A stretch of DNA of 64,000 nucleotides from Eledone cirrhosa (Eukaryota): assembly GCA_964016885.1 (NCBI GenBank), contig OZ024740.1, positions 346,456,001 to 346,520,000 on the forward strand, written 5' to 3'. This document shows positions 23,084 to 23,378 of the stretch, piece after piece; position 1 is the first letter of the stretch, and each line of letters begins with the position of its first letter. Made by a program: the position numbers and the translations under genes. A model generated the notes under the pieces. That model worked only from the letters and a program-made list of their open reading frames with translations, did not search any database and was not told where the DNA came from.

Positions 23084-23378
23084 GGGTTGACAGACCCAGC
23101 ATATTTAACAAGGCCAGTACCGGTTGTATCTCAGCGTACTCCATGGGCAATATGAGATACATTACCTGAGTATAAACATAGTTATTTGCTTCAACACAAC
23201 ACACGTAAAGCGGGTGCCATAAAGGTTTCCGGACTCGAGTTTCAGCCGCACTAATGCGGCAGTAAGGTGCACTGCACCATCTATCTGTATTTATTATGTA
23301 TCAATGCACAATCGGCTTATGCAGCTTCATCAGCGGGTATCGCCTAATCAATAACCAATCGATCGACAGAATCCTAAG
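23084..23378 (-). mobile_element. ~295-bp non-coding hammerhead-containing element inserted in (TA)n (solo pLTR- or retrozyme-like)
   Basis: Bounded by (TA)n on both sides. Contains the hammerhead at 23229-23336 and a downstream CAG|GTAATG donor-like site near 23166. Confidence 0.75.
23229..23336 (-). ncRNA. Type I hammerhead ribozyme motif with greatly extended stem II
   Basis: Minus strand: CCG CTGATGA AGCTGCATAA..GTGCATTG..CAGTGCAC..TTAGTGCGGCT GAAA CTCGAG TC CGG. Canonical core, palindromic stem III ACTCGAGT, GUC triplet. Confidence 0.8.

Follow-up and report, generated by a model that had tools for sequence, protein, structure and literature searches.

A decayed, protein-free Penelope-like repeat in Eledone cirrhosa and its family of hammerhead motifs with a predicted branched stem II

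The truncated copy and its 845-nt family

The window analyzed here is a stretch of 64,000 nucleotides of the Eledone cirrhosa genome (GCA_964016885.1, contig OZ024740.1, positions 346,456,001 to 346,520,000 of the forward strand), and positions given without a locus label refer to it. On its minus strand, 23084..23378 holds a decayed, 5′-truncated member of a repeat family whose 845-nt unit lacks ORFs and is of Penelope-like (PLE), retrozyme type; the copy falls in the youngest subfamily. It matches unit positions 550-845 at 92% and differs from the youngest-subfamily consensus at 23 of ~285 columns (~8%), the subfamily mean being 3.6%. The first-pass annotation described a 295-bp unit inserted cleanly in (TA)n. 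TA tracts do lie on both sides, as a (TA)n target tract 3′ of the copy (23014..23079) and a (TA)n-rich one 5′ of it (23379..24069), but the 295 bp are not self-contained and represent the 5′-truncated end of the longer unit. Past the fixed 3′ end, TTATTAT (23077..23083, minus) has the same letters that open the next unit in partial tandems and probably either derives from the element as a tail or reflects microhomology to the TA-rich target. Upstream of stem I, 30 nt (23368-23339, minus) form the best-conserved flank between subfamilies, with 1 of 30 columns variable, and contain ATTGG, a reversed CCAAT box; this segment is a possible pseudo-LTR promoter. A 3′-terminal hairpin (23096..23117, minus) is kept in all six subfamilies and, by analogy with the element described in PMC11167929, is a candidate recognition site for the reverse transcriptase (RT).

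A BLAST search of the 3.0-Gb genome with a 301-bp query returned 2,977 candidates, of which the best 40 were scored. The pair of hammerhead core words is found 823 times in the genome, 802 times with 76-84 nt between the words and 21 times with 85-100 nt, against 0 matches for reversed control patterns; a short gap gives two matches genome-wide. As short-loop ancestors of the family, L087 and L088 were rejected, the former being an internal deletion and the latter a chance CUGAUGA within a full-length copy. The alignment of 128 copies combines the best BLAST matches, the pattern matches, and 40 regions chosen partly for old subfamilies and tandems; L087 (deletion), L027 (segmental duplicate), L031 (the window copy again), and L032 (without the 5′ core) were left out. 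The sample comprises ~130 of some 3,000 candidate copies. Clustering places 114 of the 128 in six subfamilies that diverge by up to ~30% and form a ladder-like tree, along which mean divergence declines from 8.5% to 3.6%. Identity between old and young copies is 0.81-0.90 in the hammerhead segment, partly inflated because core columns were chosen by the search patterns, and 0.59-0.85 in the rest of the unit. For the same reason of pre-selection, invariance of the core columns is no evidence of conservation. A metagenome scan with the core pattern gave 0 matches.

The copies share one 3′ end and have ragged 5′ starts; in the longest, a closed 845-nt unit follows a partial repeat of its 3′ end. 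At no fewer than 11 loci from several subfamilies, the 3′ end is joined straight to unit position 1, closing the unit at ~845 nt. Partial tandems (pseudo-LTRs) are found at L003, L004, L025, L029, L063, L080, L084, L090, L110, L111, and L128, tails after the fixed 3′ end at L053 and L084, and inverted segments at L091, L114, and L123. Two hammerhead motifs are present in L090 (839 bp apart) and likewise in L080, L089, and L101. A TA or TAT run follows the 3′ end in 93 of the 97 copies with a located 3′ end (130 examined). Partial tandems, variable 5′ truncation, a fixed 3′ end with an optional tail, inversions, and (TA)n bias are known from the insertions of Penelope-like elements (PMC8557442, PMC11167929).

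The longest Met-initiated ORF in the doubled unit is 46 aa, and a tblastn search of the unit for similarity to PLE proteins gave nothing better than E=2. The RT plus GIY-YIG ORF of an autonomous PLE is absent from the 845-nt unit, which instead combines a protein-free sequence, a type I hammerhead, and tandem arrangement. Protein-free, PLE-derived hammerhead units of this kind are known as non-LTR retrozymes (PMC7229834, PMC7761336, bioRxiv 10.64898/2026.07.22.740005), and by anatomy the element belongs among them. It is a parasitic repeat, likely copied by the enzymes of a Penelope-like retroelement.

The proposed splice donor of the window copy, CAG/GUAAUG, is present to the letter, with its GU at 23165, 66 nt past the predicted cut, yet it is private to this copy: CAG/GU occurs in 1 of 128. 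The segment with the donor-like site (23146..23168, minus; CAG/GU at 23168-23164) corresponds, in the younger subfamilies, to an arm of a hairpin; G/GU is found in 58 of 128 copies and older subfamilies read GGG here. A different intron-like segment starts ~35 nt into the 845-nt unit, with GA/GUAAGU, a pyrimidine tract, and AG after 89-109 nt. It is seen in all 13 long copies matching the patterns at both ends, from old and young subfamilies, at the place of the retained PLE intron (PMC8557442). The window copy lost the unit start and hence lacks this GU-AG segment. Contigs of runs X1 and X2, which stem from one sample of unrecorded kind and are not expression evidence, contain the family, and none of the joints listed (15 of 18) runs across the intron-like segment.

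Autonomous PLEs are also present in this genome, and wherever a hammerhead was detected in the sampled ones it is of the short-loop form. In the window, 34253-33520 (minus) is a 5′-truncated PLE of autonomous type with a GIY-YIG endonuclease fragment, a 3′ UTR, and an end in (TA)n; its short-loop hammerhead lies at 33705-33663 (minus), and relatives are found at 41554-41512 (hammerhead only) and 49509-49357 (endonuclease, the core now being CUGCAGA). The TA tract that holds the window copy also contains the 3′ end of another PLE family (~23654-23795, minus) that by eye resembles the L226 family; in this single case the 5′ end of the fragment coincides with the predicted hammerhead cut site of the L226-like family. 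L226 itself is full length with a 938-aa frame, and L226, L227, L229, L237, L220, and L240 represent autonomous families whose cores are U3-A8 variants (UUGAAAA, UUGAUAA) and whose palindrome is ACCGGU. A further PLE family, L159-L162, encodes RT + GIY-YIG in several intact 796-aa frames, with another frame overlapping from upstream, and its 3′ UTR is rich in microsatellites; the scan found no canonical hammerhead in this family. Neither the 796-aa family nor the eight clusters from 50 GIY-YIG loci, considered as partners, have sequence in common with the 845-nt unit.

Hammerhead core and stem II

The canonical core reported by the first-pass annotation stands with all its letters: on the minus strand, CUGAUGA occupies 23333-23327 and GAAA 23243-23240, followed by GUC. 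The 5′ core word carries the extra A typical of PLE hammerheads (23326..23333, minus), an extra base after the core having been described for this type (PMC4209133), and 83 nt separate the core words (23326 to 23244, minus). Downstream, 23232..23244 (minus) comprises a variable base, GAAA, the palindrome ACUCGAGU, and C17, with the predicted cut between 23232 and 23231. CUGANGA, GAAA, and UH are present with stems I-III in type I order, and a strict hammerhead scan of 633 kb of fetched loci gave 59 matches against 0 in 10 shuffles. Judged by sequence, the window and family motif is a type I hammerhead of the Penelope-like type and more than a chance arrangement. No hammerhead reaches the Rfam gathering score in the window, and a search of 22900-23500 relaxed to E=10 yields none either. 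The gathering-score search of the window also misses the PLE hammerheads with short loops at 33.7 and 41.5 kb. Short-loop hammerheads with the same ACUCGAGU palindrome, a GUA triplet, and an extra base on each side occur at L174:1501 (minus) and L171, otherwise unlike the unit; none of the 7 short motifs with this palindrome found beyond L087 and L088 shares the sequence of the 845-nt unit.

Stem III, built around the palindrome, has 2 bp as a monomer and 8 bp as a dimer. Base 17 is C in 98, U in 15, A in 15, and G in 0 of the 128 aligned copies, and the cleavage triplet changes along the subfamily ladder from GUA to GUU to GUC (base 17 being A, U, and C), a series of two changes and as such weak evidence. 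Stem I pairs 23334..23337 with 23228..23231 (both minus), the latter strand reading CGGG in the family and CGGA in the window copy, in which the G-to-A change at 23228 leaves 3 bp of the 4-5 bp of the family. The CGGG/CGGA strand can alternatively pair with CCCG downstream. In all six subfamily consensuses the predicted probability of stem I is ≤0.03, since its 3′ strand is taken up by the downstream CCCG and its 5′ side pairs with GGCG. In these folding models, if anything gates the ribozyme, it is stem I.

The unusually long stem II, which was expected to escape short descriptors, holds family-wide and covaries. Its 5′ strand (23319..23325, minus) reads GCCRCAU in the family, with a C-to-U change at 23323 in the window, and its 3′ strand (23245..23251, minus) reads GUGYGGC. 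Across the 128 copies, pair 4 is G-C in 73 and A-U in 46, and pair 3 is C-G in 98 and A-U in 8. The first-pass annotation had let its case depend on conservation of the long stem in other copies, and conserved and covarying it is. The details drawn inside the stem fared differently. The base preceding GAAA varies (A 72, C 47, U 8, G 1; n=128), so the A-U closing pair proposed there is incidental; in the family, the helix GCCRCAU/GUGYGGC is flanked by one unpaired base on either side. Where the window copy has this A-U pair next to the core, 119 of 128 copies show a mismatch (A.C or A.A), readable as G10.1-C11.1 plus an extra base per side; a U.U is tolerated at the 10.1-11.1 place (PMC7229834, PMC3088659). 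Among 28 copies the A-U closing pair is found in 4 and one pair of the UAA/UUA extension in 9, and neither is retained. The inner GUGCAUUG/CAGUGCAC helix is dropped as well, with a probability of 0.00 in the six consensuses and >0.5 in 4 of 128 copies.

Instead of this inner helix, covariation and folding predict that stem II closes a three-way junction with two hairpins. P2a (23293..23312, minus) has a probability of 0.96-0.97 across the six consensuses, P2b (23254..23290, minus) of 0.56-0.98, and stem II of 0.39-0.98. In the window copy P2a falls to 0.01, broken by changes at 23301 and 23299, and P2b, the longer hairpin, which covaries in the family, to 0.22, its outer helix being broken by changes at 23288 and 23258. 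A covariation test on 28 copies finds 91% of cells paired and 20 both-side cells, either value being reached by 0 of 500 shuffles; the 7 pairs with a both-side change are not above shuffles (155/500). These copies were hand-picked across subfamilies, four of them for their compensatory change, and relatedness inflates such counts. An RNAalifold consensus of the 28 copies recovers stem II, P2a, and part of P2b; in it the core pairs with the palindrome and stems I and III are absent.

A further claim was that the 3′ strand of stem II can instead pair locally as GCCGCA-UUAG-UGCGGC (23245..23260, minus), which would make the hairpin an alternative fold selected to switch the ribozyme off. The letters are present at 23260-23245, and the hairpin has a probability of 0.94 in the window copy and >0.5 in 21 of 128 copies. 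It can be extended to 8 bp, G12 included, in the youngest subfamily, and a form with wobble pairs can be fitted to every subfamily (93% of cells paired). A selected switch is nonetheless rejected as very doubtful. The shared 3′ strand is what separates the two folds: the 5′ strand of stem II follows its changes (44 copies with G-C replaced by A-U, 7 with C-G replaced by A-U), and that of the hairpin does not. The hairpin shows 0 both-side changes, contains two G.U pairs in the five older subfamilies, and has a probability ≤0.02 in six of six consensuses. In the family the 5′ strand of the hairpin reads GCUGCA and is held in the long conserved hairpin P2b. The perfect form exists solely in the window copy (1 of 128), where it results from a single U-to-C change at 23258; P2a and P2b are disrupted there by changes at 23301, 23299, and 23288. 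Folded alone, the window copy is no more stable than shuffles (z-scores of -0.12 and -0.50) and forms the hairpin in place of the hammerhead fold. A switch would need both folds to be selected and close in energy, which they are not; according to the folding models, the local hairpin is the collapse product of a damaged copy.

Other long-stem families and known systems

Of the 59 strict-scan matches, 45 belong to the 845-nt family. Eight of the other 14 are long, and one of these eight (L105) proved to be an old copy of the 845-nt family as well. A second family, here called family 2 (L067:2732-2850, L019, L176-L195, L276-L305), has 2,755 candidates and 1,770 intact cores against 1 in the control. 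Its unit is ORF-less, measures ~700 nt, and is unrelated to the 845-nt one; it occurs in partial tandems and at TA targets, with many subfamilies rich in covariation. A three-way junction is predicted for its 95-nt stem II in 29 of 30 copies, each of the three helices showing compensatory changes. Family 2 appears to be the best system for a bench test. Another family has a 51-nt bulged stem II (L146:275 and 831, 556 bp apart; L274; L289; L077), and in it a GUAAGU donor lies ~20 nt past the cut site. In a fourth (L039, L177, L083, L286), stem II is bulged and 47-49 nt long, and the predicted pseudoknot covaries. A further 50-nt form of stem II is seen at L227. The long candidate L120 has no pseudoknot partner and an unconvincing fold, and is not counted as a family.

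In all four long families, the 5′ flank of stem I is complementary to the strand just above stem II. For the 845-nt family, the predicted partners are GGCG (23341..23344, minus) and the junction strand AAGCCG (23313..23318, minus; GCGCCG in older subfamilies), which would pair as GGCG/CGCC with 4 bp in the five older subfamilies and as GGC/GCC with 3 bp in the youngest, including the window copy. This case is the weakest of the four, since ~40% of random windows equal the 3 bp of the youngest subfamily and no compensatory change accompanies it; the pseudoknot is here inferred by analogy. In the other families, random flanking windows equalled the pairing in 0-10% of cases. In family 2, GGGC/GCCC forms four Watson-Crick pairs in 19 of 30 position-ordered copies and in 22 of 30 with wobble, reaching 6 bp in one subfamily. 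The L146 pseudoknot has 6 bp, and those of L039, L177, L083, and L286 have 4, 5, 7, and 5 bp, with a C-G to U-A change between related members. Misses comprise L077 and L289 (flank cut off), a second L039 copy (mismatch), and L274 (wrong linker picked; 7 bp by eye). The modelled folds represent a recurring branched, probably pseudoknotted variant of the PLE/retrozyme hammerhead.

The nearest known relatives are the PLE type I hammerheads of Cervera and de la Pena (2014, PMC4209133), which share CUGANGA plus an extra base, a 7-bp helix II, shortness of helix I, a palindrome in helix III, and a location near the 3′ end; their G10.1-C11.1 pair has a possible counterpart here. Their descriptor also permits an extra base before GAAA and after CUGANGA. 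It limits helix II to ≤7 bp and loop 2 to ≤10 nt (~26 nt in total), in contrast to the branched 83-84 nt found here and the 95 nt of family 2, and among the 56 examples aligned in that source none is long-looped. Non-LTR retrozymes (PMC7229834; bioRxiv 10.64898/2026.07.22.740005) are likewise protein-free, with a type I hammerhead and head-to-tail units, a reported length range of 51-972 bp that includes 845 nt, and autonomous PLEs in the same genome. The present element differs from them as described in these sources in occurring mostly as dispersed 5′-truncated monomers and partial tandems, not arrays, and in having an intron-like segment and a branched stem II. The anole Poseidon element PAc (Frangieh et al. 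2024, PMC11167929) shares the AT-rich target, the fixed internal RT start, the optional tail, and a hammerhead upstream of the RT start. PAc differs in being autonomous, with a minimal hammerhead that overlaps the ORF start and whose cleavage needed protein.

Among the hammerheads of Perreault et al. (2011, PMC3088659), a stabilising pseudoknot helix that links the sides of stems I and II is predicted for ~40% of the set, and it raised the rate >100-fold in one tested case. Its partners are terminal loops or tails beside short stems, unlike the predicted junction or internal-loop strand found here above a 4-8-bp stem II with structure beyond. Long insertions that do not fold into a hairpin have been a reason to discard hammerhead candidates (PMC10085705). 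In the open literature searched, including the relevant parts of PMC6765202, PMC10085705, and PMC13282606, a branched stem II was not found in any natural type I hammerhead; subscription papers lie mostly outside this search, as do Lunse et al. 2017, Arkhipova et al. 2017 (possible long-loop variants), and the Craig 2021 supplement (‘half core’, 35-50 nt spacing). Within that scope, what is new is the predicted branched stem II that recurs in two unrelated families, along with long bulged stems II in two more.

A large insertion in a natural hammerhead is reportedly also found in the discontinuous Clec2 hammerhead of Martick et al. 2008, said to be a type III ribozyme of mammalian 3′ UTRs with a long insertion of variable sequence. 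It is not known to belong to a mobile element or to have a branched stem II.

Cutting, competing explanations, and significance

Above the minimum, the active monomer costs 4.7-9.8 kcal/mol and the double hammerhead 2.6-7.6 kcal/mol per ribozyme, the latter being lower in six of six consensuses; these gaps were computed without pseudoknot or tertiary energy. For the window copy the gaps are 12.4 (monomer) and 11.2 kcal/mol (dimer), and the copy is predicted to be dead. Dimer cleavage is the published model for palindromic stems III (PMC4209133, PMC6765202), and of the frog retrozyme dimers 1 of 9 was cleaved in vitro (bioRxiv 10.64898/2026.07.22.740005). Because stem I is out-competed by the downstream hairpin, cleavage in the present family would likely need two hammerheads joined through the ACUCGAGU palindrome, or protein help.

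In TA-flanked copies the 5′ ends fall at 27 places from -14 to +3 of the cut (50 rows, by eye), with one, perhaps two, at the cut itself and 8 at AG microhomology. Upstream repeats in L063, L080, L089, L090, and L101 run past the cut site. The lack of a 5′-end peak at the cut, together with these repeats, points to uncut or re-joined RNA as the template, as for the anole element (PMC11167929). The life cycle may then be pictured as follows. A partial tandem would be transcribed from its upstream repeat. In the RNA, a pseudoknot may form between the junction strand and the 5′ flank of stem I, in place of a loop I-loop II contact, and cleavage would be slow or gated. The RT-endonuclease of a PLE would nick (TA)n, with cDNA starting inside the RNA at the fixed 3′ site, and integration would proceed from uncut or re-joined RNA. 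Early stops of reverse transcription would give copies like that of the window.

The same 5′ ends can be read in another way, namely that the fold is kept for a role other than cutting, such as binding of a PLE protein, dimerization, or RNA protection, with a core that is vestigial or rarely cuts. The missing peak at the cut site fits this explanation, as do the mismatch at the base of stem II and the fact that every motif-bearing copy was reverse-transcribed across the site. Core mutants of the anole PLE were still capable of insertion in vitro, and none of its RNA reads had an end at the site (PMC11167929). Weighing against this explanation, six subfamilies up to ~30% apart have preserved the core words, stem I, and the NUH rule, a point weakened by pattern selection, and four unrelated families keep the full core and a palindromic stem III. 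A role other than cutting is considered unlikely. Less probable by far is that the copies are the 3′ ends (pseudo-LTRs) of an autonomous PLE with an ORF outside the sample. Truncated 3′ ends of autonomous PLEs are indeed common in this genome, as at 33.5-34.3 kb of the window, and some 130 of about 3,000 candidate copies were sampled. At the 11 or more closed loci, the 3′ end leads back to position 1 at ~845 nt, and the doubled unit offers nothing longer than the 46-aa frame. The unit resembles neither PLE proteins nor the 50 GIY-YIG loci, and no sequence is shared with an autonomous PLE in 7 ORF-bearing plus 50 GIY-YIG loci, a small sample of ~10,600 candidates.

The preferred account, which appears reasonably probable as a whole, is that of a decayed, protein-free repeat copied by PLE enzymes and bearing a type I hammerhead, in which a covarying stem II is predicted to close a three-way junction and no switch operates. 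A more ambitious possibility, put forward tentatively and at well below even confidence, is that protein-free Penelope parasites of this genome have repeatedly evolved extended type I hammerheads, with a stem II of 48-95 nt, branched as a three-way junction in two families, whose junction strand docks on the 5′ flank of stem I as a pseudoknot, as fast, regulated cutters that circularise RNAs of 550-850 nt. If this is true, the pseudoknot would supply the tertiary contact that is missing from minimal PLE hammerheads. Thousands of copies would also be invisible to Rfam and to published descriptors, and animal hammerhead censuses would miss a whole class. Census descriptors limit stem II to ~26 nt, so that branched forms such as these, with at least 2,590 intact cores from two families of one genome, would go uncounted.

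Ribozyme design grafts aptamers onto the stem II arm, and natural branched stems II would be of interest in that field. The family also offers a dated subfamily ladder with natural compensatory changes, and the short-loop hammerheads of autonomous PLEs in the same genome may serve as controls. These families also bear on why Penelope elements keep hammerheads that barely cut, and they offer natural variants with a predicted extra contact.
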